Translations under genes and position numbers: made by a program | The notes under the pieces: generated by a model | Database searches by the model: none | Told to the model about the DNA's origin: nothing | Seen by the model: only the letters and a program-made list of their open reading frames with translations | Shown: piece after piece, positions 11,594 to 50,188 of the stretch | Position numbering within the stretch: the stretch's first letter is position 1 | Layout of the letters: the number at the start of each line of letters is the position of its first letter | DNA from: a virus | Lineage: Duplodnaviria > Caudoviricetes | Length of the DNA: 56,775 nt | Direction: 5' to 3' (one strand) | Virus record (IMG/VR): IMGVR_UViG_3300015360_000005 | Coordinates: 1-56,775 of that record

Positions 11594-11602
11594 CCTCTCT
11601 CT

Positions 11603-11636
11603 GTCGAGCTCTCCCAGAATCTTGGGAGAGCTCGGC
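11603..11636 (+). terminator. Strong hairpin after capsid gene
   Basis: GTCGAGCTCTCCCA-GAATCT-TGGGAGAGCTCGGC; no U-tract. Confidence 0.5.
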
Positions 11637-11669
11637 GTAGGAGTTACTTGCGACCTTGGGAGGAGTGCT

Positions 11670-26700: not shown

Positions 26701-29604
26701 GTGGCTAAAGTATCAAAATTAAAAATAGAAAACGTTAAGGCTCTTGTCGAACTTGACAGGCTCGGTATTAAATACGAGCCTACGAGCGCCGACGAAGTCA
26801 AAATCAAGTGTCCTGTACACAAAGAAGGCAAGGAAGAATCTCCCTCCTGCTTCCTTAACGTTAAAAAGAATCTGTTCATGTGCCAGACAGCAGGTTGTCA
26901 GGCACATGGCGACATAGTTTCCCTGTTCGCATTCATTGCGAACGTTCCCCGCGACGTTATTATTCTTGACTTGCAGGGTCGCTACGACTTAGAAGTCAAG
27001 AAGACCATCTCCCCCGAAAACGTCGAACGGTTCCACGAAGCGATTTGGGAAGCAGGTCCGCTTCTAAAGTTACTCTACGATCGCGGTATCACCAATGACA
27101 TGATCCGTAAGGCACGTCTTGGATACCACTCTGGTCGAATCACAATACCTATTTATGATCTAGACGGTAGCATAGTCGAGATTCGTCGTTACCTGCCAGG
27201 AGCTCCCGGCGCTGAAAAGATGCGCAACACTCCGGGATATGGTGGCAATCATATCTATCAGGTAGACCAAGCAAAGAAGTTTGATACTGTCTGGGTCTGC
27301 GGCGGAGAGATGAAAGCGCTCGTCGCAGGATGGTTGCTCAACGAGCACGGGGTCGGCGCGGTCAGCGACACAGCAGGCGAAGGGAACTGGGAAGCAGAGA
27401 ACAACAAATTCTTTAAGGACAAGCGCGTCTACATTTGCTTGGACGTGGACAAAGGTGGAAACGCTGGCTCACAGACTATTGCAGGCTATCTGTTCAACGT
27501 CGCGAAGGTAGTCTATGTCATCCGCCTCCCGTTGGACAGGACCAAATATCCGAAGGGTGACATCAATGATTTAATCGGGCAAGAGGGTGGGACTGCACAA
27601 ACGCTCCTCCAGTGCATGACGGATGCCGATCAGTGGTATCCACCAGACCTGTCCGAAGAGAAAGATCAAGAAATCTACAAGGTAATCCTGTCCGAGTCAA
27701 CACACGCGGAGCACGTAGGTAAGAAGATTGAAGTCTGTGGCATTGTTAGCTCTATGGACACGGACACTTATCTCGTACCAAGGAAGGTCAACTGTGTCTG
27801 TGACAAGTCCCAGCCTGGATGCTCGTGGTGTCCTGTAAAGAACATTGAACCAAATAAAGACGGCCAGATGGAGACAGAGGTACGAAGCTCCAATGCCGGC
27901 TTGCTCGAAATGATTAACGCGCCTAAGAGCAAGCTGAAGGACGCCATGCGCGAAGCGTTGCGAATCCCTGCCTGCAAGTCAGTTGAGTTCCATGTCAGGT
28001 CCCATTATAATGTGTCGGACTTGCGCTTGAGCCCTCAGCTCAACATCGGCAGCGAGTCCAGCAAGAACGTGGTCCAGCCTGCCTTTGTGGTAGGTAAGAA
28101 CATTGAAATGAATACACCCTATATCTTCCGTGGGAAGGTGTATCCGCAACCACGTAATCAGCAGGCAGTGCTTCTGCTTAATGAGATGGAACAGGGTACA
28201 GACAGTCTCGGCTCCTTTAAGCCTAGCGACGAAGACCTAGACGCGCTCAAGATCTTCCGCCCTACGGATTGGAGCGAGGCTGCGATTGGCCTAAAGCTCA
28301 AAGACATCTACGACGACTTCGAAACGAACGTAACACAAATCTTTCACCGCCAAGACCTGCACTTGACCGTGGACCTGTGCTACCACAGTATTCTTACAAT
28401 GAACTTCGATGGACAAGAGACAAAGGGATGGGTGAATATTCTCATTGCAGGTGACTCCTCACAAGGGAAGTCGGCCGTTGCCGCGGGATACGATGGCAAC
28501 GGTGGACTGATGAAACATTATGGTCTCGGAGAAAGAGTCGATTGTAAGAATGCCACAGTTGCGGGACTCCTTGGTGGTCTCCATCAGATTGGAACGCGAT
28601 GGTTCGTATCGTGGGGAGTTATCCCAACGCATGATCGTCGTATGGCGATCTTGGAGGAGATCGGTGGCACGGATCCCGAAGTGCTCACAAAGCTAACAGA
28701 CATGCGTTCGTCGGGCATCGCCGAAATACCAAAGATCGAAAAGAGGCGTGCGCTCGCGCGTACCAGACTCCTGCTCATTTCAAATTCACGCGACGGTCGT
28801 GCAACGAGCGCGCACAATTTTGGAATCGAAATTATTAGAGGGCTACTCCAAAGGCCAGAGGATATTAGACGACTTGACTTCGCAATATTAGTATCCAGCT
28901 TGCAGGTCAATCCCGACGAGATCAACAAGCTCGCTCGTAATCGTCCTGTCCGGCAGCACACATATAAGAAGGAGCTATGTCAGCGCTTGATCCTTTGGGC
29001 GTGGACCCGTACAGTTTCACAAGTAGCGTTTGAAAGCGACGCGGTCACCCTCATATTGGAGCGTGCGACATACCTAAGCAAGAAGTTCTCCGAGTCTATT
29101 CCGCTGGTGGACCGTGGAACCATGCGTATCAAGCTCGCGCGCCTAGCGTGTTCACTGGCTGCAAGAACCTTCTCTGCGAGTGACGACATGCAAGCGCTAG
29201 TCGTGCGCGTTAGTCATGTGGAGTACATCTCCAACTTTGTCGATCGCGTCTATAGCGACAAGGTATTTGGATATAGTGACTTTAGTAAAGCACAGATCCA
29301 CGCTAACGCGGTCCTCGACCCTGATGCAGTTAAAAAGCAGATCGAGTCTACTAAACATCCCGCAGACTTTGTCAAGATGATGCTCTACACCGAGACCATC
29401 TCGATGAATGACATTTGCGATTGGTGTGAGGTAGACCGAGACATTGGACAGAAGCTCATGTCGTTCTTCGTTCGTAAGCACGCGCTCTACCGTGTTAAGC
29501 GCGAGTATCAAAAGACGAGCGATTTCATATCCCTACTAAAAGAGATGGAGCGCATAGGTGTAAAGAAGGCAGGCAGCGCAGACCTCTCAAAGGAGGAGTT
29601 CTGA
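26701..29604 (+). CDS. Primase-helicase: CHC2 zinc finger, Toprim, MCM-like AAA+ helicase
   Basis: CPVH...C...GC; GGEMKA and LDVDKGG Toprim; CxC..CxxC zinc site; GDSSQGKS Walker A; AILEE Walker B; DIRRLD. Confidence 0.88.
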   Translation: MAKVSKLKIENVKALVELDRLGIKYEPTSADEVKIKCPVHKEGKEESPSCFLNVKKNLFMCQTAGCQAHGDIVSLFAFIANVPRDVIILDLQGRYDLEVKKTISPENVERFHEAIWEAGPLLKLLYDRGITNDMIRKARLGYHSGRITIPIYDLDGSIVEIRRYLPGAPGAEKMRNTPGYGGNHIYQVDQAKKFDTVWVCGGEMKALVAGWLLNEHGVGAVSDTAGEGNWEAENNKFFKDKRVYICLDVDKGGNAGSQTIAGYLFNVAKVVYVIRLPLDRTKYPKGDINDLIGQEGGTAQTLLQCMTDADQWYPPDLSEEKDQEIYKVILSESTHAEHVGKKIEVCGIVSSMDTDTYLVPRKVNCVCDKSQPGCSWCPVKNIEPNKDGQMETEVRSSNAGLLEMINAPKSKLKDAMREALRIPACKSVEFHVRSHYNVSDLRLSPQLNIGSESSKNVVQPAFVVGKNIEMNTPYIFRGKVYPQPRNQQAVLLLNEMEQGTDSLGSFKPSDEDLDALKIFRPTDWSEAAIGLKLKDIYDDFETNVTQIFHRQDLHLTVDLCYHSILTMNFDGQETKGWVNILIAGDSSQGKSAVAAGYDGNGGLMKHYGLGERVDCKNATVAGLLGGLHQIGTRWFVSWGVIPTHDRRMAILEEIGGTDPEVLTKLTDMRSSGIAEIPKIEKRRALARTRLLLISNSRDGRATSAHNFGIEIIRGLLQRPEDIRRLDFAILVSSLQVNPDEINKLARNRPVRQHTYKKELCQRLILWAWTRTVSQVAFESDAVTLILERATYLSKKFSESIPLVDRGTMRIKLARLACSLAARTFSASDDMQALVVRVSHVEYISNFVDRVYSDKVFGYSDFSKAQIHANAVLDPDAVKKQIESTKHPADFVKMMLYTETISMNDICDWCEVDRDIGQKLMSFFVRKHALYRVKREYQKTSDFISLLKEMERIGVKKAGSADLSKEEF

Positions 29605-30071
29605 TGGATACTGTGGTCGCCGCTGTAATCCGGCGGAACGAGGACAGCAGACTGCTGATCATCCGGCGTGGAAGGAAGCTCGCAGGCTTTCCCGGACTGC
29701 TTTGCCTTGTTGGTGGACGCGTAGACGCTACAGACGTCCGCGATCCGGGTGTAGGCAGCATGGCATATCGCGAAGAACTCACTCTAGGATACGCTTTAGT
29801 TCGAGAGGTGCGTCAAGAGATCGGTGGTAAGGTCGTCGTAGAACTCAAGGACATACAGAAGGCATATCGCTACGAAGACCCCAAGAAGCGATTCGTAGTT
29901 CACATGGTCGAATGTCATCTCGACATGAATGAAGATGAGTCTCTGGAACTAAGTCTACGCGAGGTAGATGAGTTGCGATGGATGACTGTGCAGGAGTTGC
30001 TGGCTGAGAAGGATCTCATCCCTTCCCTGCAAGAGTGGGTGAAGCATCAGATGACTGCGGATGCATCATAG
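29604..30071 (+). CDS. Nudix hydrolase
   Basis: GGRVD...ALVREVRQEIG (Nudix box with insertion), EVDELRW. Confidence 0.75.
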   Translation: MDTVVAAVIRRNEDSRLLIIRRGRKLAGFPGLLCLVGGRVDATDVRDPGVGSMAYREELTLGYALVREVRQEIGGKVVVELKDIQKAYRYEDPKKRFVVHMVECHLDMNEDESLELSLREVDELRWMTVQELLAEKDLIPSLQEWVKHQMTADAS

Positions 30072-30088: not shown

Positions 30089-31087
30089 ATGATTTCGGAA
30101 CACGAAACGCTGGATGAGATGTGGTTAGAGGCGAGCCAGTTCATTCTGTCCAATGGAAAGGATGTTGACTCGCGTGATGGTGCAAGCAAGGAGATCATGG
30201 GATACTCCGCTCGCCTCCTACAGCCTACTGCGAATTTCATGTTCAATCCAATTCGCCGTATGAGCCCATCTTATGCCGCTGCTGAGATGCTCTGGTATCT
30301 CAGTGGACGCAACGAGATTGACATGATTAAATGCTACGCTCCTCAGTACGAGCGGTTCGCGTCAAAGAGTGTCGCCAATGGAGCGTATGGACATCGCTGG
30401 ATCAATACAAATAAGTACACGGACGCTGTGGGCGTGGAAGAAAATCAACTCAATCGCCTACGTTACCTTCTCTCAACAAAGCAGGAGACGCGGCAAGCGG
30501 TTCTCACAATGTATTTCCCCCAAGACTTAATGCGCGCCGAGGGAGCATACGGTGAAGAGGGATCAAAAGACATTCCCTGCACACTGAGTCTACACTTTAT
30601 TGTTCGCGAGAAGAAGCTTAATCTCATCGCGACAATGCGGTCCAACGACGTATGGCTCGGCATGCCCTACGACGTATTCTGCTTTACTACCCTGCAGGAC
30701 CTTATCGCGCAGTCCCTCGGACTAGAGCTTGGATGGTATCAGCATCAGGCTACGTCATTACACGTGTATGAGCGCAATCTCGAGAAGTTCAAAGAGGCTG
30801 CAAATCCTCCCTCGTTTATATGTGGTCCTCTGGAGTATGTTCCGTCGCTCGCTGGTGAAATCTTCTGGGATGGAATTCACAAGGCACTGAACTTTGAATC
30901 GTGGTCACGGCGAGAGAAGCTTTTTCCAGCCGACATTGGAAGTGCGCTCGGCGAGAACAGCCTGTTAAAGTCCCTCTGCTTTATGTGTGCAACTAAATGG
31001 GAGCCTGCCTGTTGCCGGAAGGCTAGCAAGTTCACCGCGAACTCCCTCATGGCAAACTATCTCGAAGAGCATTGGAGCAAGGAATAA
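30089..31087 (+). CDS. Thymidylate synthase-fold pyrimidine (hydroxy)methylase, Asp (dCMP-type) specificity residue
   Basis: GAYG.RW, TRQAV, catalytic DIPCT, MRSNDVWLGMPYD, SLHVY. Confidence 0.85.
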   Translation: MISEHETLDEMWLEASQFILSNGKDVDSRDGASKEIMGYSARLLQPTANFMFNPIRRMSPSYAAAEMLWYLSGRNEIDMIKCYAPQYERFASKSVANGAYGHRWINTNKYTDAVGVEENQLNRLRYLLSTKQETRQAVLTMYFPQDLMRAEGAYGEEGSKDIPCTLSLHFIVREKKLNLIATMRSNDVWLGMPYDVFCFTTLQDLIAQSLGLELGWYQHQATSLHVYERNLEKFKEAANPPSFICGPLEYVPSLAGEIFWDGIHKALNFESWSRREKLFPADIGSALGENSLLKSLCFMCATKWEPACCRKASKFTANSLMANYLEEHWSKE

Positions 31088-31614
31088 TGTTCATCATCGA
31101 AGGAGCTGACAATCTCGGTAAGACAACTGCAGCAAAGCAGATCGTAGAGAAGATTGAGCGCTTCCCAGTCTTCTACTCGCACATGACTCGGCCGAAGCTG
31201 AACGCATTTAACTTCGGCACGCATTACGTAGACCGGATGTCTGTCTATGGTGTGCAGGACCGCTTCCATCTCGGAGGGATTGTCTACCACGACGCAATCG
31301 GCCCGACGGCTCTGCGTTACATTGAAGGCGAACTCTTGGTCCGCGGTTCGTACATCGCAATCTTTATTGCGCGCGACGAAGCATGGTATCGCCAGCATCT
31401 CGAATCAAACAAGAAAGATGAGATGTACGGTATCGAAACAATGGTTAAGACAAACCAGAAGTTCATCGAGCTCGTTGACACGCACAGAGTTCACTTTGAC
31501 GCTTTGTGCGAAGTCAGCGAGCATGGATTTCCCGGCTACTCTCTCATCGAGTATTGGTGTGAGCAGTGGAAGGATCGCCTCAGAGCGAAGGAATCACGAT
31601 GCGGCAACAAATAA
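31087..31614 (+). CDS. dNMP kinase (thymidylate kinase-like)
   Basis: IIEGADNLGKTT P-loop, QDRFHLG..VY. Confidence 0.82.
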   Translation: MFIIEGADNLGKTTAAKQIVEKIERFPVFYSHMTRPKLNAFNFGTHYVDRMSVYGVQDRFHLGGIVYHDAIGPTALRYIEGELLVRGSYIAIFIARDEAWYRQHLESNKKDEMYGIETMVKTNQKFIELVDTHRVHFDALCEVSEHGFPGYSLIEYWCEQWKDRLRAKESRCGNK

Positions 31615-32114
31615 GAATCGCCAGCTATTACCTGATGCAACTGGATCAGACAAAGGTAATGGCTGAAGAGCGAACGCGCTGCAAGCGGAAGGGAGTAGGA
31701 TGCGCTCTTCACAATTATACGGCGAGGGCGTTCTTTTCTAATAACGGTCCAGCTAGACCGAACTTCGGATGCTTGAACATTCCAGGAAAGTGTGGATGCG
31801 TTCATTCGGAACCGCGCGTTGTGATGAATGCTCTACGTGCAGGTTGGAAGTCCGGTCTGATCATGACCTGCACATATTCGCCGTGTGAAACGTGTGCTAA
31901 CATCATTATTGATTCTGGCGTAGTCGCCGGAGTAGTCTACGACATCATGACAACGTATCCCGACAGAGTATGTCGTGGAGCAGAATTCCTTCGCAGTGTA
32001 ATGCCAGTCATCACCGCGTTGGAGCTCAAGAAATTCTTGGCAGACCCTGCTACGGAGGTGGGAACAGGTGCTCAACTTAGGGAATGGGAATCTATTAGTC
32101 CAGTCAGCAAGTGA
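31599..32114 (+). CDS. dCMP deaminase-like zinc deaminase
   Basis: HSE and SPCETC motifs, C.RK.VGC. Confidence 0.85.
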   Translation: MRQQIRIASYYLMQLDQTKVMAEERTRCKRKGVGCALHNYTARAFFSNNGPARPNFGCLNIPGKCGCVHSEPRVVMNALRAGWKSGLIMTCTYSPCETCANIIIDSGVVAGVVYDIMTTYPDRVCRGAEFLRSVMPVITALELKKFLADPATEVGTGAQLREWESISPVSK

Positions 32115-34062
32115 ACTCCCGGAAGTCTTTGGAGTCAACGAGCTCTATCTGGACGTAGAAACACAGTCTAACAGCCCGAAGCGTCCCGGCGACTCCCCGT
32201 ATCAAGGGGATCGCATTTGTGGCGTCTCAATAACTTACGACGACTGCTCAAACGCATGGTACATTCCCGTGCGACACTCGGATGGGCGTTGGAACATAGA
32301 CATTGAGCCGTTCCAAAAATGGTTGCGAAAGGTTATCTGGTCTTCTAAGAGGTGGATCAATCACAACATTCTTTTTGACATGCACTTCTGTGCGATGGAT
32401 GGAGTTGAGTATACGTGGGATCAGTTTGTAACCGAGATCTTTGACACACTCGTGTTCGCCAAGATCGTGGACAGCGACCGCGTCATCGAAGGTTATGGAT
32501 TGAAAGACCTCGCTCACGATTGGTGCAATGCTGACAACGAAGATCGCACGCGGATGCAAGCGTATCTTAAAGGCATGAAGTCTAAGAACTATGCAGATTG
32601 TCCCGCAGACATCATGGGCGACTACGCTTGCGGAGACGTGCGAAAGAATCGCGCCGTGTACCACAAGATTCTGTCGATGTATGATTCCAGCATGAAGCTC
32701 TGCTGGGAAAACGAAATGCGTCTAACTCCTGTGATCTACGACATTGAAGATTTCGGAATGCCTGTTGACAACACAGAACTCAAGGTGGAGAAAGCGAAGT
32801 CGCTCCATAAACAGATTATGATGGGTGACAGGCTGCACACATTGCTCGGGCATGAAATGAACCCTAAGAGCAATCCGCAAGTCTATGACGTGCTGATCAA
32901 CCAGTTTGGACTTCCGATTCTCGCTACAAACGAAGACGAGAAAAGCAGCACGTTTGGAAATCCAACCTTCGACAAGGATGCGCTCGCGCTGTACCTTATT
33001 CATCCATCAGTACTTGCAGACCCTCTTAAGCTGGAAACAGTCAAGCTGATAAAAGGGCTCCGCGACGAATGTCACTTTGAGAGCTTGTTTCTGAACACAT
33101 ACATTGAGCAGGCTGTAAACGGCATTCTGCATCCGTCGTATAATCAAGTCGTGCGTACCGGACGCATGTCGTGTCGCAATCCAAATGCACAGCAACTAAA
33201 CAAACGCGCGAAGAAGTTAATTCATCCACGTCCTGGTATGGCAATCCTGTCCGCCGACTATTCGCAAATCGAATTCCGCCTCATCGCACATTATATTTGT
33301 GACCAAGAGGCGATTAAGGCATACAACGAAAAGCCAGACACAGACTTCCATTCCTGGGTCGCGTCTATGTGTGGTGTAAAGCGCAAGGCTGCGAAGTGCT
33401 TGAACTTCGGAATGGGATTTGGCGCTGGAAAAGCAAAGGTCGTTAAGATGCTTTCCGGTAATCCGGACGTCATAGAAGCAACGTCAGTCAAGATCAATCT
33501 CATGATCGAGTCTGGCGTGCTCATCGCTGCAAATCGAAACATTGAATACAAGAAGCAGTGCGAAATCCTAGCGGAGGGACTCTACAATATCTACCACGAA
33601 CGACTCCCTGGAATCAAGGCAACGTCGCGTCGCGCGGCGGATGTAGTTAAGGCACGCGGATACGTTTTCAACGCTTATGGAAGGCGTCGTCACTTGCAGG
33701 ATCGCTTCTGTTACAAGGCATTTAATTCTGTCGTTCAGTCGTGCGCGGCAGACGTCATGAAAGACACTACAGTCAAGCTCGCTCCGCGATACAACAAAGT
33801 CACACGAGACTGGGGATACAATATTTTCGCTCTCGTGCATGACGACGCGTCCGGCATGGGTCCTGTGGAATCAATCCTCGATCCAATGTTCCAAAGACAC
33901 CTTAAAACAACGTTGGAGGACTCCACGATAAAGTTTTCCATTCCAATTGTCACGGAAATGGGATACAGCCTGCGCGACTGGGGAGAAGCAAGCGCGGAAG
34001 AGCCTGTGGTGGTAGATGGGCATGTGGTAGCGGGACCGCTGAATAATTCCAGTCTACCATAG
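32068..34062 (+). CDS. polA: Family A DNA polymerase with 3'-5' exonuclease
   Basis: DVET, HNILFD, YACGD; RTGRMSC.NPN.QQ; motif A DYSQIEFR; motif B KCLNFGMGFG; motif C VHDD. Confidence 0.95.
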   Translation: MLNLGNGNLLVQSASELPEVFGVNELYLDVETQSNSPKRPGDSPYQGDRICGVSITYDDCSNAWYIPVRHSDGRWNIDIEPFQKWLRKVIWSSKRWINHNILFDMHFCAMDGVEYTWDQFVTEIFDTLVFAKIVDSDRVIEGYGLKDLAHDWCNADNEDRTRMQAYLKGMKSKNYADCPADIMGDYACGDVRKNRAVYHKILSMYDSSMKLCWENEMRLTPVIYDIEDFGMPVDNTELKVEKAKSLHKQIMMGDRLHTLLGHEMNPKSNPQVYDVLINQFGLPILATNEDEKSSTFGNPTFDKDALALYLIHPSVLADPLKLETVKLIKGLRDECHFESLFLNTYIEQAVNGILHPSYNQVVRTGRMSCRNPNAQQLNKRAKKLIHPRPGMAILSADYSQIEFRLIAHYICDQEAIKAYNEKPDTDFHSWVASMCGVKRKAAKCLNFGMGFGAGKAKVVKMLSGNPDVIEATSVKINLMIESGVLIAANRNIEYKKQCEILAEGLYNIYHERLPGIKATSRRAADVVKARGYVFNAYGRRRHLQDRFCYKAFNSVVQSCAADVMKDTTVKLAPRYNKVTRDWGYNIFALVHDDASGMGPVESILDPMFQRHLKTTLEDSTIKFSIPIVTEMGYSLRDWGEASAEEPVVVDGHVVAGPLNNSSLP

Positions 34063-35126: not shown

Positions 35127-35639
35127 ATGAAGACCGAACTTTTCGCAGACTATAACGAGTTCCTTGCTCGCCCCAATAAAACAGTCAACGGCGCGACGCA
35201 AGCTTTCGCGTTGCAGAACCACATAGATCTGGACCTTGACTCTGGAAACAACGGATGCTGGAATATGTGCTCCGGCTGTGCCGACTGCACAGGCTGCTCC
35301 GGCTGCTCCCGCTGCTGGGACTGCTCCGGCTGCACAGGCTGCTCCCGCTGCTCCCGCTGCTCCGGCTGCACAGGCTGCACCGACTGCACAGGCTGCTTCC
35401 GCTGCTGGGACTGCTTCCGCTGCTGGGACTGCTCCGGCTGCTGCTCCGGCTGCACCGACTGCACCGACTGCTCCCGCTGCGTCCGCTGCTCCGACTGCAC
35501 CGACTGCACCGAATGCTCCCGCTGCGTCCGCTGCTCCGACTGCCTCCACTGCTCCCGCTGCTCCGGCTGCTCCCGCCGTGAAGCAGGTGCTAAAATAGTC
35601 AATGCAAACGGCAGCCACACTACTGCCGAGATTGGATAG
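35127..35639 (+). CDS. (Cys-x-x)n repeat protein, paralogue A (ribozyme-flanked unit 2)
   Basis: MKTELFADY N-terminus shared with 49624 and 50189; 9-bp TGCNNNNNC repeats. Confidence 0.75.
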   Translation: MKTELFADYNEFLARPNKTVNGATQAFALQNHIDLDLDSGNNGCWNMCSGCADCTGCSGCSRCWDCSGCTGCSRCSRCSGCTGCTDCTGCFRCWDCFRCWDCSGCCSGCTDCTDCSRCVRCSDCTDCTECSRCVRCSDCLHCSRCSGCSRREAGAKIVNANGSHTTAEIG

Positions 35640-41687: not shown

Positions 41688-41885
41688 ATGGCACGAGGTC
41701 TAACCATTAGGCGCAAACACGGAGAGAGCGTAGTCCTCTTCGTAGACGGGAAGGTAATTGGTTCCATCCGCTGCACATCTAAGAACGCTTCTCTTGAGTT
41801 TGACTTTGCGGAGTCGGTCCGCATTAAACGTGAAGAGTCCATGAGCCTAAAAGAACGGGAGGCCAAACGTGAAGCGAATGATTGA
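41688..41885 (+). CDS. CsrA/RsmA-like RNA-binding protein
   Basis: LTIRRKHGESVVL...V.I.REE resembles the CsrA pattern LxLTRxxGE...VxxxREE. Confidence 0.55.
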   Translation: MARGLTIRRKHGESVVLFVDGKVIGSIRCTSKNASLEFDFAESVRIKREESMSLKEREAKREAND

Positions 41886-42144
41886 TTTGTCGATGCTGCT
41901 CAACATCCAACGGCGATCTGTGGAAGTTGGACGAGACATGCACACTGCCGTCGCGTCGTACCTTTATGACTGTCCAATAAATGAAGTTACAGCGGAACAA
42001 CGCGCTCAGGCAAAGGTTTGGAACTTTGGACTCTTGTACCGATCACCGTCCCGGACGGTCTTTGGCGCTCTCAAGACTCCTGGCTACCACGAGAGAGACA
42101 ACAACAACAACGCTCACTCTGGCTTTGAGGGACATGGCGTATGA
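41869..42144 (+). CDS. Stand-alone DNA polymerase I fingers/O-helix fragment
   Basis: DMHTAVASYLY......VTAEQRAQAKVWNFGLLY; GGAGG RBS; ATGA-coupled to the next gene. Confidence 0.65.
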   Translation: MKRMIDLSMLLNIQRRSVEVGRDMHTAVASYLYDCPINEVTAEQRAQAKVWNFGLLYRSPSRTVFGALKTPGYHERDNNNNAHSGFEGHGV

Positions 42145-43124
42145 GCAAAACAGACAGTTCGATTGCAGGCTTCTTCGGATGGATCAACGAGCGTCATGCA
42201 ATCTGGCATAGACGCAACGTTGAGAAGCTGCCGAGGCCTTGGTCGCAGGATGAAATCTTCCTCGACTACAAATTCACAAACACCTTCCGAGAGCTAGACA
42301 GAGGGACCATTGCATTACACGAGATGATCGACAGTCTCTGTCACGCAATGGAGGTCCAAGACTTCGAGCACACAAAAGAGAAGCGAACGCAACTTGCGAA
42401 GGAGTTAGTTTTCAACGTCATGTGGTACAGGCTGTTCAACTGCGACTTCCATGCAAAGGAGCTAGGCTATTGCTTGCGACCGGAGCAGGTCATCGACTAT
42501 ATGCAAGCAAAGGCAAAGCGTGGAGAGAAGATCTTTACGTCTGCACACCTTTGCACTGTACGTCCGGGAAAAGCAAAGGTTGACTCCTACACAGAAGCAG
42601 TAATGGACGCGTGGGATGACGCGCATATTGTTGTTGAAGCTTGCAGGACACTCCGCACCATGAAAGGAGTCTACGACACACTAAAGCAGTTCTACCTCAT
42701 CGGTGGATTCGTCGCATACGAAATCACATGCGACTTGCGCTTTACACCGTTGCTCCAGGATCCTGTGGATAGACTTCGGTGGGCGAACATTGGTCCAGGA
42801 GCGGACAGAGGGATGTGTCGTCTTGGTCTGTCAAGCACAATCAACACAATGGTCTGTCTGCACAGACTGGCAATCGGTGATTGGAGCAAGTACACAGACT
42901 CCGTAGACGAGAATGCTTTCGAGGGAATGAACACTAACGACATAGACATTATTAACGACGCTAACTTTCAAGGCACGCGCGTCGGTCCGCATGTCCTCAA
43001 TGCTCCAGTACCATTCGAGTTGAGAGAAATCGAACATTCACTGTGTGAGTTCGATAAGTTCGAAAGAGTCCGGCTGGGACAAGGGCGTCCACGCCAGAAA
43101 TTTAACGGGAGGACAGATGGCTAA
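42141..43124 (+). CDS. 5-hmdU DNA kinase-like protein (aGPT-Pplase1 clade)
   Basis: ERHAIW.RR, PWS.DEIF..YKFTN.FRE.DRGT, YRLFN, F.AYEI..DL, GPGA.RG, EIEHSLCEFDK. Confidence 0.88.
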   Translation: MSKTDSSIAGFFGWINERHAIWHRRNVEKLPRPWSQDEIFLDYKFTNTFRELDRGTIALHEMIDSLCHAMEVQDFEHTKEKRTQLAKELVFNVMWYRLFNCDFHAKELGYCLRPEQVIDYMQAKAKRGEKIFTSAHLCTVRPGKAKVDSYTEAVMDAWDDAHIVVEACRTLRTMKGVYDTLKQFYLIGGFVAYEITCDLRFTPLLQDPVDRLRWANIGPGADRGMCRLGLSSTINTMVCLHRLAIGDWSKYTDSVDENAFEGMNTNDIDIINDANFQGTRVGPHVLNAPVPFELREIEHSLCEFDKFERVRLGQGRPRQKFNGRTDG

Positions 43125-43575
43125 GATCTATGTCGCAGCGAGTGCTTCAAAACTCACCGAAGCAAAGCAGGTCGCCGCGAAACTCAAAATGGCTGGACAC
43201 GAAGTCACTTCGCGCTGGCTACTTGGAGCAGCGGATCTTTACACCGGAGCACGCGGTGAGCAGTCAAAGATCGAACACGGAATAAAGTGTGCGGAGGAAG
43301 ACTTTGAAGACGTGACTGCGGCGAATGTTCTTGTCCAGCTCACCGGAGACACAGAAACAAAGGGTGGACGTCATTCGGAATTGGGAATCGCGTTGCACAA
43401 GAACAATCTGTGTATCATCATCGGTCCGCGAGAACAGGTTTTTCATTATCATCCGCGTGTCTTTCTCGCTCGCGACGTGGAAGAAGCACTAAATCTCATC
43501 ACAGTCGCAGCGGCAATCGGCGAGGGGACTAAACAGCACGGCAGCACGTATAGGGAGCAGCACAGGATACCCTAA
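43117..43575 (+). CDS. Nucleoside 2-deoxyribosyltransferase / nucleotide N-hydrolase-like protein
   Basis: KIYVA, GHEVTSRW, D..DV..A, GGRHSELGIA. Confidence 0.78.
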   Translation: MAKIYVAASASKLTEAKQVAAKLKMAGHEVTSRWLLGAADLYTGARGEQSKIEHGIKCAEEDFEDVTAANVLVQLTGDTETKGGRHSELGIALHKNNLCIIIGPREQVFHYHPRVFLARDVEEALNLITVAAAIGEGTKQHGSTYREQHRIP

Positions 43576-43707: not shown

Positions 43708-44589
43708 ATGCGAATTTACATTCCCACTCTCGGAAGACGAGACAAACAAATTACATTCAACACGTTGACAAAGTTCTGGCAAGAAAGAACGTGGTTCGTC
43801 GTCCACAGACGCGAAGTAGAACTATTTAAAGGACATCCGAATCTCGTTGTCGTCGAAAAGATCGGTGCTCCTCATGCACGCCAGACAGCGGTTGATCACT
43901 GCTTAAAAGGTTTCCTTGCAGGTGAGTGCTCTGCGTCATTGTTTATGTTTGACGATGACTTGCGATTCTCTCAACGCGTCAAGGATTGGAACATCGACAC
44001 AAATGTTCGCCTGGAACAGATGAGGCCTGACGATCTGCACAAGGCTCTCGAGCTCTTCCAGGAGCGTCTCGATGATTATGCTGCTGTCGGCATGTCCGCG
44101 CGAGGGATGAACAATCAAGTCCCCGACCATCCATACAAAGAAGCGGGACGGCTGATGCGCGCATTTGGTGTTCGCGTGGACATTCTGGACTACAAGAAGA
44201 TCCGCTTCGACAAATTCGAATACTGGGAAGACTTCCATGTCACACTGGAGCTCTTGAAGAATGGTTATGCGACTTACGTTTCGACTGCACACTGCAACGA
44301 CGGCATAACTAATGCTGACGGAGGTTGCAGCGAGTACCGTAATCGCGATGGACTGCTTAAGACACGCGGGGAGTTCATTGAGTATCATGCTCCTTACGTC
44401 AAAGCAAATGACAAGAGCTCCGAGTCGTGGGGCAATACAGACGAATCGACGATGCCGGACATCCGGATCGCATGGGTCAAATGTTATGAGGACGCAGTAA
44501 GGAGGTTTCAAAATGAAAGCAAGAGCGATAATACTAGCAGCAGGGAAGGCGGAACGGCTCCCGAACAAACTGCTCCTTCCGCAACATAA
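43708..44589 (+). CDS. GT-A DNA base glycosyltransferase (TET-associated glycosyltransferase-like)
   Basis: IYIPTLGR, MFDDDL.F, EDFHVTLELLKNG, GGCSEYR. Confidence 0.78.
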   Translation: MRIYIPTLGRRDKQITFNTLTKFWQERTWFVVHRREVELFKGHPNLVVVEKIGAPHARQTAVDHCLKGFLAGECSASLFMFDDDLRFSQRVKDWNIDTNVRLEQMRPDDLHKALELFQERLDDYAAVGMSARGMNNQVPDHPYKEAGRLMRAFGVRVDILDYKKIRFDKFEYWEDFHVTLELLKNGYATYVSTAHCNDGITNADGGCSEYRNRDGLLKTRGEFIEYHAPYVKANDKSSESWGNTDESTMPDIRIAWVKCYEDAVRRFQNESKSDNTSSREGGTAPEQTAPSAT

Positions 44590-45238
44590 TCTTTCACCCG
44601 TTATTATGTCGTCGGTCATCTATGCGCAGATGCTGCTGAAGTCAGTCAACGGGAACGCGGACGATACAAAGCCGATCGTCGTTGTGGACACTCCCGGGAG
44701 TCTCGTGCATCTGTTTCTAAAAAGATGTTATGCTGACTCTCTTGAGTATGTATTCCAATATCCTATTTCTAGGGTATTGGAACACATGTCCGGAGTGTGT
44801 GGTGCCTTGCTCACGGCATGGAGTCCTCTCTACGGAGATGATGAGTTCTACGTGCTCTGCGGGGACAACATCTATCCTAGCTTCGACGCAATGCATCTAC
44901 CGACCGAGCGTGGAGCAGTGTGCAGGAGCGTCTCCGTAGATGAAGCCTGTGATCTTGTTACTTGGGAGCCTACGAAATGGCAACGCGGATTAGGTTCTCG
45001 CGAAGGATCACATTCTAGTGAATACCTTGCGCTCACAACTCCATGGATGCTCACGTCTGTAGATTTCCAAATGCTAACACATGGATTGTCGAGCGGAACA
45101 CTCATGTACGACTCCGTTGTGGAGTGGTTCAATTTAATGCAGATGCGTCCTTACGTTGTTAAGCGCGGAGAGTGGCGCGACATGGGACGTTCATCGTCAG
45201 CAATAGCTTACTGGGAGCTCACTGATGAACAAACATGA
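44513..45238 (+). CDS. Sugar-phosphate nucleotidyltransferase
   Basis: AIILAAGKAERL.NK.LLP, GDNI, W.DMG. Confidence 0.8.
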   Translation: MKARAIILAAGKAERLPNKLLLPQHNLSPVIMSSVIYAQMLLKSVNGNADDTKPIVVVDTPGSLVHLFLKRCYADSLEYVFQYPISRVLEHMSGVCGALLTAWSPLYGDDEFYVLCGDNIYPSFDAMHLPTERGAVCRSVSVDEACDLVTWEPTKWQRGLGSREGSHSSEYLALTTPWMLTSVDFQMLTHGLSSGTLMYDSVVEWFNLMQMRPYVVKRGEWRDMGRSSSAIAYWELTDEQT

Positions 45239-46148
45239 CAGCAAAGAACACCTAGACGCACAAGAACGCGTCTACAACATGATCCCTCCGCGGCATAAGC
45301 CTAAGAGCTTGTTCCGACGAGACGCGAACACACTGGCATACGAGTATGTGAAAGGAGTACATCCAGACACAGACCTCACAATCAACAAGTCTCATCGCGT
45401 GTGGAAGCTTATCTGTCGTCCAAGCGTCATGAGACCGGAAGAGAAGTTGCGCATTCTATGCACTGCAGAGTACAGACTCTACATCATAGAGCGTGCATAC
45501 CTTACTTTCCAAGGCGACAACCTAGCGCGCATAAGGGACGCCCTTATTGTGTGGTGCAACGAAGCGCGCAAATTTGTCTACACGGAGTTCATCCATGGTG
45601 ATTTCACTCTCGAGAACATTATTATCGACCAGGAGTGGGACGTGGTCTACATTGATCCTGGAGTGGATCGCGGCTTAACTGTTATTGAGATGGACGAGTC
45701 GAAGATGCTGCAATCGATAATCACACAATGGGAACATATCCACCGTGATCGGCTTCCTTGCAGGGTCCCACCTCCGTTCGAAGTTCTACCAGAGCACATT
45801 GTTCTGCTCTTGTCGCATTGGATCCGATTACTGGCGCATCCGGAGAAGCACAGTGAAGAGATTCAACTGTACGGGGTTCAGCAGGTTGTTCCGCTGCTGT
45901 TGGAGGAAATAGATGCATACAATGCTGGTAGACATGGACGGAGTCCTAGTGAACTGCAAGCGGAGTGTATACGTCGCATACCGTCAAGCCTGCTTGGAAG
46001 ATGGAATCGTTCTGAACAAAGACGCGTTCCAGAAGTGTCTCTGGGGAAAGACGTGGAAGGACGGTCTGGGCAGTCTATTCCCGAATCTGGACGAACTAAG
46101 CCTCCTCAGGATCAAGCTTCGCAAGGACAATTATTTCCTCCAGTGTAA
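45225..46148 (+). CDS. APH/choline-kinase-like phosphotransferase
   Basis: YEYVKG, HGDFTLENII, YIDP, D.SK.LQS. Confidence 0.78.
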   Translation: MNKHDSKEHLDAQERVYNMIPPRHKPKSLFRRDANTLAYEYVKGVHPDTDLTINKSHRVWKLICRPSVMRPEEKLRILCTAEYRLYIIERAYLTFQGDNLARIRDALIVWCNEARKFVYTEFIHGDFTLENIIIDQEWDVVYIDPGVDRGLTVIEMDESKMLQSIITQWEHIHRDRLPCRVPPPFEVLPEHIVLLLSHWIRLLAHPEKHSEEIQLYGVQQVVPLLLEEIDAYNAGRHGRSPSELQAECIRRIPSSLLGRWNRSEQRRVPEVSLGKDVEGRSGQSIPESGRTKPPQDQASQGQLFPPV

Positions 46149-46455
46149 AGTGGAGGTCAATGAACCCGTAGTCGAGATGGTGATCGACTTGAGCAGGATG
46201 GGCTATCCTATTCATATCGTGTCATCGGCGAGCTACGAAGCGAACGAGCACAAGCTGAGATTCTTACCAGCCTGTCTCAGCATGGTTCCGCGTACACACT
46301 CTGCTCCTAAAGGTATGGAGGTCTTCTGGAGACAGTTCATGGACCGCCATAATTATAAATTCGCGGTTCTGTTCGACGACGACAGACGGGTCTGTGAGGC
46401 AGCGAAAGCGCAAGGCATTAAAGCAATCTGTATCGACTCCTTGGAGGACCTATGA
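45913..46455 (+). CDS. HAD-family phosphatase
   Basis: DMDGVL, IVSS, K, FDDD...AA...GI; GGAGG RBS. Confidence 0.85.
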   Translation: MHTMLVDMDGVLVNCKRSVYVAYRQACLEDGIVLNKDAFQKCLWGKTWKDGLGSLFPNLDELSLLRIKLRKDNYFLQCKVEVNEPVVEMVIDLSRMGYPIHIVSSASYEANEHKLRFLPACLSMVPRTHSAPKGMEVFWRQFMDRHNYKFAVLFDDDRRVCEAAKAQGIKAICIDSLEDL

Positions 46456-47372
46456 AGCTCCTAGTACACAAGTCCGAGCTGAGCAAGATCACCATACACC
46501 ACTACAACGCTATCCGGGAAGCGTTGCCGGACTTGGAGTGCATTGTGTTCAAAGAGGCGGATGAGATTCCGTCGCTCAAGGACGAAGAGGTATTCAAGAT
46601 TGGTAACAGTATGTTCCTTGGCAGCGAGATCTTCGATGCGCTGAAAGAACGTCTGCAAGAGTGCAATCGCGCGGTCCTGATCACAGACGACTACACCACA
46701 CCTCCTCCAACACAGGTCCGGCAGGGTATAGCAGGTAAGGACAACGTGATGCTCACCACATGTCCCAACATATATGATCATGTGAACCACAAGACAGTCT
46801 GGTCGTCGTGGATTCGCAATGTGATCTATGTGAATTGGAACCTCGCTACGTGGCACCCTCAACCGCTGCGAGAGCCGGAGCTAATCGGTAAGCTGTTCTA
46901 CTACGGTGCTTTCAGAGAGGGAAGAGTACCTTACTTTGAGAAGTACCTTAACAATCCTTACACAGTTATCTCGACTACGCCGAAGGGTGAAGATAAGCTT
47001 GAAGAGTACTGCTACGACTCAGTCTTCACGCAGCGAATTCAAACAACTGATTTGTGGAAGGCATCCATGACCGTCTACATGGAGGACATTGGAAGCCATA
47101 AGATCTACTCGTCGCCTGCAAATAGGTTCTGGGAGTGCCTTAGTAATGGTGTCGCAATGCTTATCGATCGCAATGCTGTTCACACCTTGCAGGAGTTCGG
47201 TCTCGATGTTCCCGACCGTTGGATCGTTGATACAACGGCGGAAGTTGAAAGTCAGTTGGCGAATTGGAAAGCAATACGTGAAGAGCAGCGGGAGCTCTGG
47301 CAAGCAGACTATCGTGGTCAGCTGATCGAGCAAATCAAAGAGGCGTTCAGACTAATCAAAGAGGAGTGCTAG
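46452..47372 (+). CDS. GT-B glycosyltransferase resembling T4 beta-glucosyltransferase
   Basis: YYGAFREGR and ANRFWECLSNGVAMLID resemble, as I recall them, BGT YGGSFRSG and RVWETMASDAVMLID. Confidence 0.62.
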   Translation: MKLLVHKSELSKITIHHYNAIREALPDLECIVFKEADEIPSLKDEEVFKIGNSMFLGSEIFDALKERLQECNRAVLITDDYTTPPPTQVRQGIAGKDNVMLTTCPNIYDHVNHKTVWSSWIRNVIYVNWNLATWHPQPLREPELIGKLFYYGAFREGRVPYFEKYLNNPYTVISTTPKGEDKLEEYCYDSVFTQRIQTTDLWKASMTVYMEDIGSHKIYSSPANRFWECLSNGVAMLIDRNAVHTLQEFGLDVPDRWIVDTTAEVESQLANWKAIREEQRELWQADYRGQLIEQIKEAFRLIKEEC

Positions 47373-49571
47373 ATGAGAATACGCAAGCGCGACGGGAGCA
47401 TTCAACAGTTCGATCCGCGAAAGATCAGGCGCGCGATCCTAATGGCCTTTGCGGAGGTCCATCCAGGTAAGCCAGTTGAGATGAGCCCTCTCGAGTCGTC
47501 CGTCTTAGCATTCCTCGACGGCCGCGAAGTGGACAGTGACATCTTCGACATTGAAACCATCCAAGACGTCGTTGAGCAGGTTCTAATGGCTCACCAATTC
47601 TTGGACGTCGCAAATGCGTATGTCATCTACCGTCACGAAAGAGCGAAGCTACGTGCGTCGCGGCAGAAGCCCGACGACAATGCTCCGGCGGACTATATCC
47701 ATCTTGCCAAGTATGCCAAGTATAGGCACGAATGGAAGCGGCGAGAAGTATACGCTGAGACCGTGAACCGTGTGAAGGACATGCATCTTAAGAGATGGCC
47801 GGAGCTGTCCACACAGATCGAAGACGCGTTCGGCTATGTGTATGACAAGAAGGTGCTGCCTTCTATGCGGTCTATGCAGTTCGCAGGAGCCGCTACGATA
47901 GCACACAATGCTAGGATGTATAACTGTGCATTCACCCTTATCGATCGTGTGCGATCGTTCCAAGAGACTCTCTACCTTTTATTGTGCGGATGTGGCGTAG
48001 GGTTCAGCGTACAATGGCAACACGTTGACAAGCTCCCGCGTCTCGGTCGCGTCAACGAGAAGTCTGTTGTCCACTACACCATCCCGGACACCATTGAAGG
48101 ATGGGCTGACGCTGTCGGCATGCTCTTCGATTCATACGTCAACGGTTATTGTGTTGAGTTCAGTTACCATTTGATTCGCCCAGAGGGATCGCCGCTCAAA
48201 ACGAGCGGAGGTCTGGCTCCTGGACACTTGCCGCTCAAGCTCGCGTTAGAGGCGATTCGTAATGTCTTACACGTTGCTCAGGGTCGCAAGCTGAGACCGA
48301 TTGAGTGCCACGACATCGTCTGCTTCTGTGCTGAAGCGGTCCTTGCAGGAGGCATTCGTCGGTCTAGCCTTATTAGTATCTTCAGTCCCGAAGACACAGA
48401 GATGGTCTACGCGAAGTCTCATGGTGTCTTCGAACCGAACAAGCTCAACGCTCAACGTGAGATGGCAAACAACTCCGCTACCTTCCTACGCAGCAAGGTG
48501 GATCGCGCGTCGTTCGACAGGGTCATCCGAGTCGCACAAGAAAACTTTGGCGATCCGGGCTTCTACTTCACAGACAATCTCGACTACGGAACCAATCCGT
48601 GCGGAGAGATCGGCCTCAACCCTACGATAGACGGTAAGACAGGATTCAGCTTCTGTAATCTCACCATTGTCAACGCGGCAACGGTCAAGGATGAGAGCGA
48701 CCTGATAGAGCGTATGCGTGCCGCTGCGTTCATTGGAACCTTGCAGGCTTCCTATACCGATCTGGAATATCTTGGTGGGACTACCATTAGGATCGCACAA
48801 CGTGATGCGCTCATTGGCGTGTCTATGTCCGGCATGATGGACAACCCTGCAATCGCATTCAACCCTGAGCTCCAACGTAAGGCAGCACGCACGGTCTTGC
48901 ATGAGAACGTTGTGACCGCTATGCAGATCGGTATCAACGCGTGCGAACGTGCTACTACTGTAAAGCCCGACGGCACATGCGCATGGGAGCTAGGTGGGAT
49001 AGGTAGCGGCATTCACCCGCGACATGCGCGTAGGTTCTTCCGCCGCTTTACAGCTAATCCGTTGGAGCCCGTCGCGCAATACTTTCGGAAATACAATCCA
49101 CACATGGTAGATGTAAAACCTAATGGGGACCTCTCTATTGTGTTCCCTATCGAGATCGCATCGGACGCCATGACCGTGAAGGACATGCCTGCACTGGACT
49201 TTATTGAGAGGGTGATGTCCACGTACGACAACTGGATTGTTCCAGGCACTGTGTCCATGCACAGTCCGGGCCTCACGCACAACGTGTCTTGCACTGTAAC
49301 GGTCAAGGATGACGAGATGCAAAGTGTGCTCGACACAATATGGGACAACAGACATCGCATAACGGCGATGGCCTTCGCACCATATATGTTGGACAAGAAG
49401 TTTCCATACGCACCGAACGAAGCGGTCGAGACTCCGGCCGACGAGGTCAGGTGGAACTATTACATCGTTAATTACAAGCCAGTACCGTGGAGTGAAATGA
49501 AAGAAGAATGGAATGCATCCCTCGCACAGTTAGAGCCAGCGTGCGGAGGAGGCTCGTGTGAGGTCCGATGA
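47373..49571 (+). CDS. nrdJ: Class II (B12-dependent) ribonucleotide reductase with ATP cone
   Basis: KRDG ATP cone, PSMR, NCAF, GCGVGFSV, TNPCGEI, CNL, TTVKPDGT, C-terminal ACGGGSC; no beta-subunit gene seen. Confidence 0.9.
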   Translation: MRIRKRDGSIQQFDPRKIRRAILMAFAEVHPGKPVEMSPLESSVLAFLDGREVDSDIFDIETIQDVVEQVLMAHQFLDVANAYVIYRHERAKLRASRQKPDDNAPADYIHLAKYAKYRHEWKRREVYAETVNRVKDMHLKRWPELSTQIEDAFGYVYDKKVLPSMRSMQFAGAATIAHNARMYNCAFTLIDRVRSFQETLYLLLCGCGVGFSVQWQHVDKLPRLGRVNEKSVVHYTIPDTIEGWADAVGMLFDSYVNGYCVEFSYHLIRPEGSPLKTSGGLAPGHLPLKLALEAIRNVLHVAQGRKLRPIECHDIVCFCAEAVLAGGIRRSSLISIFSPEDTEMVYAKSHGVFEPNKLNAQREMANNSATFLRSKVDRASFDRVIRVAQENFGDPGFYFTDNLDYGTNPCGEIGLNPTIDGKTGFSFCNLTIVNAATVKDESDLIERMRAAAFIGTLQASYTDLEYLGGTTIRIAQRDALIGVSMSGMMDNPAIAFNPELQRKAARTVLHENVVTAMQIGINACERATTVKPDGTCAWELGGIGSGIHPRHARRFFRRFTANPLEPVAQYFRKYNPHMVDVKPNGDLSIVFPIEIASDAMTVKDMPALDFIERVMSTYDNWIVPGTVSMHSPGLTHNVSCTVTVKDDEMQSVLDTIWDNRHRITAMAFAPYMLDKKFPYAPNEAVETPADEVRWNYYIVNYKPVPWSEMKEEWNASLAQLEPACGGGSCEVR

Positions 49572-49623
49572 TGGTGCCTTTACCTTTAGGAGCGCTGTGA
49601 ACCGTCCTAGGAGGGACAATGAA

Positions 49624-50112: not shown

Positions 50113-50188
50113 CTGATAGACGAACTCACTAGAGAGTGCTTCCGCTCTATTGTACGAGAAGGTGAACCGTCCTAGGAGGGACAATGAA

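Follow-up and report, generated by a model that had tools for sequence, protein, structure and literature searches.

A Predicted 5-Hydroxymethyl-dCMP Synthase in a Phage Genome with aGPT-Pplase1 and Putative DNA Glycosylation Genes

Introduction

The virus record IMGVR_UViG_3300015360_000005 of IMG/VR (Duplodnaviria; Caudoviricetes), 56,775 bp long and referred to here in its full length as the window, raises the question of which DNA base its phage modifies. The record has direct terminal repeats, is rated 100% complete, and is the complete genome of a siphophage-type phage. At the focus of the question are three overlapping genes for an enzyme of the thymidylate synthase (TS) fold, a P-loop kinase of deoxynucleoside monophosphates (dNMPs) and a deaminase of the CDA fold (Table 1). 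An earlier note on this DNA regarded the first of them as a cytosine-type synthase standing in a genome with a kinase of the 5-hydroxymethyluracil (hmU) type, and proposed that either hydroxymethyl-dCMP (hm-dCMP) is deaminated to hm-dUMP, or the aGPT-Pplase1 protein encoded downstream acts on 5-hydroxymethylcytosine (5hmC, hmC). The residues of the TS-fold protein match those published as characteristic of 5-hydroxymethyl-dCMP synthases, so that this activity is predicted for it, and the aGPT-Pplase1 of this genome is not a kinase. A T-even-like route to glycosylated 5hmC can be considered probable, if by no means secure; it would comprise a MilA-like dCMP hydroxymethylase, a Tmk-like kinase, a dCMP deaminase and two glycosyltransferases, with aGPT-Pplase1 as an accessory.

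The Predicted Hydroxymethylase and Its Specificity Residue

The string MRSNDVWLGMPYD, in which the earlier note saw an Asp in place of the Asn of E. coli ThyA, is located in the plus-strand open reading frame (ORF) of the TS-fold protein, whose match to PF00303 has an E-value of 6.6e-27 (94.7 bits against a gathering cut-off of 24.3). This is the single TS-fold gene in the whole genome, and there is no separate phage-encoded thymidylate synthase. In an ungapped register counted from the conserved Asp169, Asp195 of the window protein corresponds to Asn177 of E. coli ThyA and to Asp179 of T4 gp42, the three strings being DVWLGMPYD in the window, DVFLGLPFN in E. coli and DVVFGFRND in T4 gp42; this register was relied on because MAFFT displaced the T4 sequence by one column there. 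HMMER aligns the window segment gmpYDvf to gvpFNia of a solved ThyA (6auj) and to avsDvf of MilA. The latter is also the best solved sequence match of the protein (3.8e-29), and the similarity to T4 gp42 is distant (1e-07). For the AlphaFold model, based on 56 relatives (pLDDT 92.4), matches to both TS and MilA structures had a probability of 1.00; the TM-score to MilA was 0.80–0.84 over about 332 columns, a match across the entire protein with its helical C-terminal extension, and to ThyA entries just 0.54–0.63. Register, HMMER alignments and the fold match confirm independently of one another that the Asp occupies the specificity position.

The meaning of this position is known from two sources. 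According to Lee et al. (2026; PMC13326640), N177D is a marker of dCMP as the substrate, acidity at the L143 position accompanies a hydroxymethyl rather than a methyl product, and D169N is the mark of a recent discovery, the flavin-dependent synthases of RB69 and DLP3 that make 5-hydroxy-dCMP. In the account of Zhao et al. (2016; PMC5175136), Asp186 is common to the cytosine enzymes MilA, BcmA and T4 CH, with Asn in TS and in the SPO1 dUMP hydroxymethylase, and the ribose preference of MilA comes from Ala176 together with Lys133, the deoxyribose enzymes carrying Ser and Arg. Mutational specificity swaps at the Asp/Asn residue are cited in both papers.

In the window protein the catalytic Cys164, equivalent to Cys146, lies within KDIPCT, and three residues ahead of it Asp161 takes the position of ThyA L143, as in T4 (SDFMC) and MilA. 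The D169 equivalent, Asp187, is kept within Arg184-Ser185-Asn186-Asp187 (MRSND). Ser185 stands at the position of MilA Ala176 and Arg135 at that of MilA Lys133 (ETRQAV in the window, DSKRAV in MilA). All of these residues (Cys164, Asp161, Arg184–Asp187, Asp195 and Arg135), as well as Thr165, are invariant in the 56 relatives. Asn was found at the specificity position in six of six hmU-type comparators, namely SPO1 gp29 and the enzymes of SP10, ViI, phiW-14, AN14 (a phage of the M6 species) and the cyanophage Pam3, where it mostly follows a one-residue insertion (G-A-N). Thus all the diagnostics (Asp at L143, Ser, the kept Asp169, Arg, and Asp at N177) agree and point to a putative 5-hydroxymethyl-dCMP synthase; as far as residues can tell, the cytosine-type assignment of the earlier note holds, every published diagnostic favouring dCMP over dUMP.

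A bona fide ThyA, converting dUMP to dTMP, was considered and rejected: the protein has Asp195 and Asp161 in place of Asn and Leu, and its best score against the NCBIfam ThyA equivalog, 69.3 bits, lies far under the cut-off of 327. The view that it is not a plain dTMP synthase is borne out by the same score.

Table 1. Features of the window that are discussed in the text, in order of position.
Feature	Coordinates	Strand	Basis
Nudix hydrolase	29604..30071	+	PF00293 5.8e-14; phrog_1198
TS-fold pyrimidine hydroxymethylase with 5-hydroxymethyl-dCMP synthase signature (predicted)	30089..31087	+	Residue signature, Pfam, model
P-loop dNMP kinase, Tmk/YorR-like	31087..31614	+	Weak Pfam Thymidylate_kin match; profile search
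dCMP deaminase, ComEB/T4 cd type	31566..32114	+	PF00383 8.1e-09; zinc site; profile
Family A DNA polymerase (PolA) with 3'-5' exonuclease	32068..34062	+	Pfam, PHROG matches
aGPT-Pplase1 / HMUDK_hel all-helical protein, without kinase domain	42141..43124	+	PF18723; phrog_2396
Nucleoside 2-deoxyribosyltransferase-fold protein, nearest BcmB/MilB N-glycosidases	43117..43575	+	Profile
GT-A glycosyltransferase, TAGT (TET/JBP-associated) family	43708..44589	+	PF20691 3.8e-14; phrog_842 9.4e-30
Sugar-1-phosphate nucleotidylyltransferase-like (weak matches)	44513..45238	+	IILAAGKAERL N-terminus; PF00483 0.13; TIGR03992 0.0014, under cut-off
APH/choline-kinase-like phosphotransferase (weak matches)	45225..46148	+	HGDFTLENIII..YIDPG; PF01636 0.048
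HAD-superfamily phosphatase	45913..46455	+	PF13419 4.7e-09; phrog_8468
GT-B fold glycosyltransferase, T4 beta-glucosyltransferase-like (a lead, not a family assignment)	46452..47372	+	Atlas

Enzymes Acting on the Nucleotide Pool

The gene order Nudix–hydroxymethylase–kinase–deaminase–PolA, with a primase-helicase gene upstream, is as the earlier note described it, and so is the coupling to the kinase: the stop codon of the hydroxymethylase (TAA, 31085–31087) shares its A with the ATG of the kinase (translational coupling). The ATG of the hydroxymethylase itself is preceded by AGGAGAG. When 28 homologs are combined in a profile, the kinase matches SPbeta YorR (2axp) from end to end (4.6e-18), with thymidylate kinases next. 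For the deaminase, whose start is possibly the ATG at 31599, and for the N-glycosidase-like ORF further downstream, profiles were used because single-sequence PDB searches gave nothing useful for either of them, nor for the Nudix protein. The deaminase profile matches 4p9c (3.1e-23), 2hvv (5.4e-22), T4 1vq2 (1e-19) and human 2w4l (1.1e-15), the solved dCMP deaminases concerned being those of cyanophage S-TIM5, Streptococcus mutans, T4 and human. Its zinc site reads HSE...PCETC (H-x-E, P-C-x-x-C) and is accompanied by the extra CGC pair of cysteines of the ComEB/T4-type enzymes.

Both the kinase and the deaminase are therefore enzymes of the nucleotide level, and the former is probably an hm-dCMP kinase. 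The Nudix protein, which has weak, sub-threshold NCBIfam matches to MutT and to a pyrimidine dNTP diphosphatase, may be a sanitiser of the nucleotide pool, e.g., a pyrophosphatase of dCTP or of another dNTP. PolA has to accept the modified dNTP. The logic of T4 gp56/gp42/gp1/cd, which the classical hmU pre-replicative pathway shows too (PMC8989533), recurs in this set of a pyrophosphatase, a hydroxymethylase, a dNMP kinase and a dCMP deaminase.

aGPT-Pplase1 and the Supposed hmU Kinase

The helical protein that gave rise to the notion of an hmU-type kinase belongs to PF18723, a family now called HMUDK_hel and earlier aGPT-Pplase1. Its E-value is 2.6e-38 and its score 132.4 bits (cut-off 25), the match covers positions 5–276 of the 281 in the profile, and the protein is 26–28% identical to its homologs in Pam3 and AN14. 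Its model (pLDDT 88.8) consists entirely of helices, the motif GxxxxGK[ST] was not seen in its sequence, and a Foldseek search of the model against the PDB gave no match at E<=0.001, AlkA and Ogg appearing at E>1 only. PF18748, the family of the catalytic P-loop 5-hmdU DNA kinase (5-HMUDK), has zero matches in the complete genome even at E<=10; M6-type proteins and a protein of the related contig L033 do match it. Phosphorylation of 5hmU in DNA has been reported for a P-loop protein (M6 gp54 and its homologs, PF18748), and M6 gp55, a clade-1 aGPT-Pplase that corresponds by position to AN14_14, was reported to be dispensable in the reconstituted kinase and transferase steps. The aGPT-Pplase1 is thus not a kinase here. 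The premise of an hmU-type kinase is half true, since the helical HMUDK_hel partner is present and no catalytic PF18748 protein is encoded in the genome, and the conflict seen between the two halves of the locus is therefore weaker than stated.

The kinase next to the hydroxymethylase was also considered as the missing 5-HMUDK and was rejected. It has no PF18748 match at E<=5 and no BLASTP similarity to the M6-type 5-HMUDKs (the AN14 and Pam3 kinases), its profile is that of YorR/Tmk, and such kinases are present at loci of the same hydroxymethylase type without aGPT-Pplase1. Just upstream of the aGPT-Pplase1 gene, at 41869–42144, lies an ORF of 91 aa with a short match to family A polymerase PHROGs, maybe a remnant or a small DNA-binding module.

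The Downstream Cluster, a Probable Glycosylation Unit

The genes that follow aGPT-Pplase1 have the look of a unit for DNA glycosylation that brings its own sugar-activating enzymes. The TAGT protein scores 53.5 bits with PF20691 (cut-off 27.5), and in its DDD motif D82 and D83 are invariant and D84 is present in at least 90% of 30 homologs; it is probably a glycosyltransferase of hydroxymethylpyrimidines in DNA. The GT-B protein (306 aa) scores 0.96–0.98 in Atlas to viral glycosyltransferase clusters, some of them with PF09198 or T4 beta-glucosyltransferase (TM 0.78–0.82), its Pfam match being to PF13524 at 0.026 only. The C-terminal 235 nt of the APH-like ORF overlap the next gene. Upstream of the TAGT gene, the N-hydrolase invoked in the earlier note has a probable counterpart: the match to PF05014 stays under the cut-off (0.011; 16.3 bits against 28.8), and a six-sequence profile finds the CMP N-glycosidase BcmB (4jen, 4.2e-08) and MilB (1.4e-03), with a conserved GGRHxELG in which the Glu is invariant. 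A class II ribonucleotide reductase is also encoded in the cluster. Pfam scans and BLAST detected no AADT, PLP or radical-SAM partner in this genome.

Recurrence of the Module across Viral Loci

Two sets of viral loci were compared, with flanks of up to 10 kb on each side; many of the contigs are fragmentary, and the counts are of loci rather than independent lineages (L033 and L117 are the same contig, and L019/L020 as well as L024–L026 are near-identical). The first set, fetched via aGPT-Pplase1, numbers 87 loci, 78 of which have a TS-fold ORF within 10 kb. Among the nine without such an ORF in the flanks the whole contigs of five were searched, and that of L034 has an Asp-type enzyme further along. 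The second set of 80 loci was fetched with a profile of the Asp-type enzyme, and 79 of them carry PCT...MRSND.W.G.PYD; the Tmk/YorR-like kinase adjoins the hydroxymethylase in 54 of the 79. Ten of the 79 contain aGPT-Pplase1, together with TAGT in eight, the deaminase in nine, the kinase in nine, GT-B in four and the N-glycosidase-like ORF in four. In these loci aGPT-Pplase1 is often a direct neighbour, in the order hydroxymethylase, aGPT-Pplase1, TAGT; in L120 and L130 GT-B comes fourth and the series has no gap. A PYD-type enzyme is also encoded by a cultured phage, Lactobacillus phage ATCCB (L190:6001-9056), where an annotated beta-glucosyltransferase and a UDP-galactopyranose mutase come after it.

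A maximum-likelihood tree of 90 aGPT-Pplase1 sequences, computed with a quick method, unites the 11 copies of Asp-type loci, including that of the window, in one clade (SH-aLRT 96), and the 68 from Asn-type loci fall outside it; shared descent accounts for part of this grouping, given the kinship of the phages themselves, whose primases are about 47% identical. The distance between TAGT and aGPT-Pplase1 is 1 kb or less at 43 Asn-type and 8 Asp-type loci. PF18748-like kinases are scarce among the aGPT-Pplase1 loci, occurring in 6–8 of the Asn-type loci (L040–L109), a count that comes, like the others for this family, from a custom iterated HMM checked with Pfam for 15 ORFs and that may be too low for Asn-type kinases. 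The closeness of TAGT and the rarity of the kinases therefore indicate that the helical protein is a companion of the glycosyltransferase here, whichever the base. aGPT-Pplase1 is, then, a helical accessory that travels with the glycosyltransferase and, in its own clade, with cytosine-type hydroxymethylases. As to its action on hmC, the repeated occurrence beside Asp-type hydroxymethylases and the single clade speak for the proposal of the earlier note; the dispensability of M6 gp55 lends the note no support. It is also worth mentioning that the Asn-type loci with TAGT and aGPT-Pplase1 suggest systems of glycosylated hmU resembling base J.

The contig L033 is a sister of the window: its aGPT-Pplase1 is 42% identical, and the order hydroxymethylase–kinase–deaminase–PolA is kept. 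Its segment 9971–16405 encodes aGPT-Pplase1, a FEN-like 5'-3' exonuclease, a methyltransferase-like ORF, a B12-binding radical-SAM protein, a homolog of the GT-B protein of the window, a SPASM radical-SAM protein and a PF18748 kinase, and an ORF resembling a pyrimidine-dimer glycosylase lies upstream of this block. In L034 a UDG-superfamily gene and a SprT-like gene come directly after aGPT-Pplase1 (10980–12009).

A Probable Route to Glycosylated 5hmC and Its Alternatives

In the explanation favoured here, the phage would replace or supplement cytosine with 5hmC and then glycosylate it, a T-even-like strategy carried out with different parts. Before replication, the MilA-like enzyme would hydroxymethylate dCMP, as its active-site signature predicts, and the coupled Tmk/YorR-like kinase, to judge from the linkage, would phosphorylate hm-dCMP. 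The deaminase, by analogy with T4 cd, would send part of the dCMP to dUMP for dTMP synthesis by the host and in this way cut the competing dCMP, and the Nudix protein and the BcmB/MilB-like N-glycosidase may clear competing canonical nucleotides. After replication, the TAGT GT-A and the T4 beta-glucosyltransferase-like GT-B would glycosylate 5hmC in the DNA, using an NDP-sugar that the neighbouring kinase-like, nucleotidyltransferase-like and HAD genes, given their families and order, could make or top up. aGPT-Pplase1 would most likely bind or present the hydroxymethylpyrimidine in DNA.

Several observations weigh against this explanation. The Asp rule is founded on a handful of characterised enzymes, and the matches of the sugar-activation genes and of GT-B are weak or indirect. 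The TS-fold ORFs linked to aGPT-Pplase1 are overwhelmingly Asn-type (75 of 78, with one Asp-type, in L033, and two truncated). The deaminase is present in nine of the ten Asp-type loci with aGPT-Pplase1 and in none of the 75 Asn-type flanks, which fits a conversion of hm-dCMP to hm-dUMP. PF18748 proteins were found in 20 of the 79 Asp-type loci, and all 15 that were scanned match the Pfam family (best 1.5e-28). L033 joins the Asp-type enzyme and aGPT-Pplase1 to two radical-SAM genes and a PF18748 kinase (29.1 bits, above the cut-off). One of the 15 scanned ORFs also matches ADDT (PF18724, amino acid:DNA transferase), and three PF18748 ORFs of 490–530 aa, a length sufficient for fusions, lie 1–2 kb from PCT..PYD hydroxymethylases (L172:450-2015, L173:7438-9039 and L188:7579-9057). 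A pure hmC reading accommodates the Asp-type loci with PF18748 only if the enzymes of this family accept hmC. The possibilities are that 5hmC is a substrate of these kinases and transferases, that a deaminase encoded elsewhere in the phage or by the host makes hmU from hm-dCMP, or that the Asp rule does not hold in this clade.

Of the alternatives, a two-step route to hmU survives best, and we still think it unlikely. Here hm-dCMP is the product of the Asp-type enzyme and is turned by the deaminase, wholly or in part, into hm-dUMP, which the kinase phosphorylates; the DNA then carries hmU, perhaps along with hmC, and it is on hmU that aGPT-Pplase1 and the glycosyltransferases work, the way they do in Asn-type phages. 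The conserved hydroxymethylase–kinase–deaminase block and the distribution of the deaminase just described speak for this route; the same can be said of the company that aGPT-Pplase1 and TAGT mostly keep, that of dUMP-type enzymes, of the radical-SAM genes in L033, which are typical of thymidine hypermodification, and of the UDG gene adjoining aGPT-Pplase1 in L034. However, the deaminase is an ordinary one of the ComEB/T4 cd type, and it also occurs at 22 of the 49 Asp-type loci without aGPT-Pplase1 or PF18748, in MW202657, and likewise in T4; its linkage suits the T4 pattern equally well. Its motif is present in the flank of just two of the 20 Asp-type loci with PF18748. The separate clade of the Asp-associated aGPT-Pplase1 copies fits an adaptation to another base, and literature searches found no printed phage precedent for such a route.

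That dUMP, or dUMP and dCMP both, are hydroxymethylated despite the Asp is improbable. This would be an ordinary hmU pathway with a deaminase supplying dUMP as in SPO1 and M6, and the gene set does equal the textbook hmU pre-replicative pathway of PMC8989533; the enzyme is found together with aGPT-Pplase1, its relatives also with PF18748 and ADDT, and the PYD-type (Asp) enzyme of the cultured Agathobaculum phage AB434P2 (L191:3838-4500) is labelled a dUMP hydroxymethyltransferase, by annotation only. On the other side, the window protein does not look like a dUMP hydroxymethylase of the SPO1 gp29 or M6 kind, enzymes that usually show C-N at the catalytic Cys and a GAN motif: the Asn of all six comparators is replaced by Asp, the residue of all three printed cytosine enzymes (PMC5175136). 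The specificity swaps obtained by mutation at this residue and the invariance of Asp195 and Thr165 in the relatives point the same way. Since Asn is kept in 75 of the 78 enzymes linked to aGPT-Pplase1, the residue is under selection in both groups.

Another C5-modified dCMP that is then glycosylated, either 5-methyl-dCMP from a dCMP methylase or 5-hydroxy-dCMP from a synthase of the RB69 gp48/DLP3 gp80 type, would share the Asp at the N177 position and, as in the RB69 and DLP3 clusters, nearby glycosyltransferase and sugar-activation genes (PMC13326640), but is very improbable: the 5-hydroxy-dCMP synthase was rejected, the marker D169N being absent (RSND, with Asp187 invariant in the 56 relatives), and the methylase is unlikely, the L143 position holding the Asp that the same source links to hydroxymethyl products.

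Comparison with Known Systems

The enzymes of the mildiomycin and bacimethrin pathways, MilA and BcmA, have Asp at the base-specificity and L143 positions like the window protein, and MilA is its best match in both sequence and fold; a putative N-glycosidase resembling their partners MilB and BcmB is encoded in the same phage genome. Unlike MilA, with its Ala176 and Lys133, the window protein has Ser185 and Arg135, the deoxyribose-preferring state, and it belongs to a phage replication module rather than an antibiotic cluster.

With T4 (gp42, the gp1 dNMP kinase, cd, the gp56 dCTPase and the alpha- and beta-glucosyltransferases) the window shares the logic of the pathway, the Cys-Thr after the Asp of the L143 position, the Asp at 179, a dCMP deaminase of the same family and a GT-B protein resembling the beta-glucosyltransferase. 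The differences are that gp42 is only distantly similar, the kinase of the window is Tmk/YorR-like, and a Nudix protein stands in place of the gp56-type enzyme; moreover, the window adds a TAGT GT-A, aGPT-Pplase1 and a putative N-glycosidase, and its phage lacks a thymidylate synthase of its own.

The thymidine hypermodification systems of M6, ViI, phiW-14, SP10 and PaMx11 (dUMP hydroxymethylase, P-loop 5-HMUDK, aGPT-Pplase/AADT) have a PF18723 homolog and the pre-replicative gene set in common with the window, in which, however, Asp replaces Asn, PF18748 is missing, and glycosyltransferases take the place of the AADT, PLP and radical-SAM partners. In the clusters reported across metaviromes by Pyle et al. 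(bioRxiv 2023.12.21.572611) GT-A (TAGT-like) and GT-B genes likewise lie near ThyS homologs, dCMP deaminase and APH-type genes; in the text available from that source the term aGPT is absent and ThyS homologs of the Asp and Asn types are not separated.

Implications

Hypermodifications of phage DNA decide the escape from restriction, CRISPR and glycosylase defences and are a source of enzymes for epigenetic sequencing, 5-HMUDK being already in use for 5hmU labelling. The genes for aGPT-Pplase, 5-HMUDK and AADT are currently filed under thymine chemistry. A tentative idea, which we regard as possible and somewhat doubtful, is that the thymidine-hypermodification machinery has a cytosine-directed branch, in which aGPT-Pplase1 and TAGT would act on 5hmC in the clade of the window, and PF18748 kinases, ADDT fusions and radical-SAM enzymes would phosphorylate and substitute 5hmC in other Asp-type contigs, giving hypermodified cytosines that have not been described. 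If these proteins do act on 5hmC, an unexplored class of cytosine hypermodification, with 5hmC-specific DNA kinases and transferases, would come into view; if instead the deaminase turns hm-dCMP into hm-dUMP, hmU would be made along a biosynthetic path that is new. In both cases the Asp/Asn position offers a cheap sorter for thousands of metavirome clusters, and it shows how names given in databases, among them 'thymidylate synthase', 'dUMP hydroxymethyltransferase' and '5-hmdU DNA kinase, helical domain', may be misleading. Our literature searches found no report that pairs aGPT-Pplase1 or PF18748/ADDT with cytosine-type hydroxymethylases; ThyS types near kinases or glycosyltransferases might be listed in the supplements of PMC8989533 (Figs S7 and S15), of Pyle et al. 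(Figs S9–S11 and tables) and of PMC13326640.

Other Features of the Genome

Almost all long ORFs of the window are on the plus strand, the capsid and Mu-F-like head genes being located within the first third and the replication block in the middle of the genome. WD40 beta-propeller ORFs are present at both ends, at 14–2236 and at 55466–56773, the latter running off the end. Three paralogous ORFs (35127–35639, 49558–50112 and 50150–50665) have a common N-terminus, MKTELFADY...NGCWNM, beyond which C-x-x-C repeats of five residues extend in long runs; the repeat DNA is GC-rich and has several open frames on both strands.

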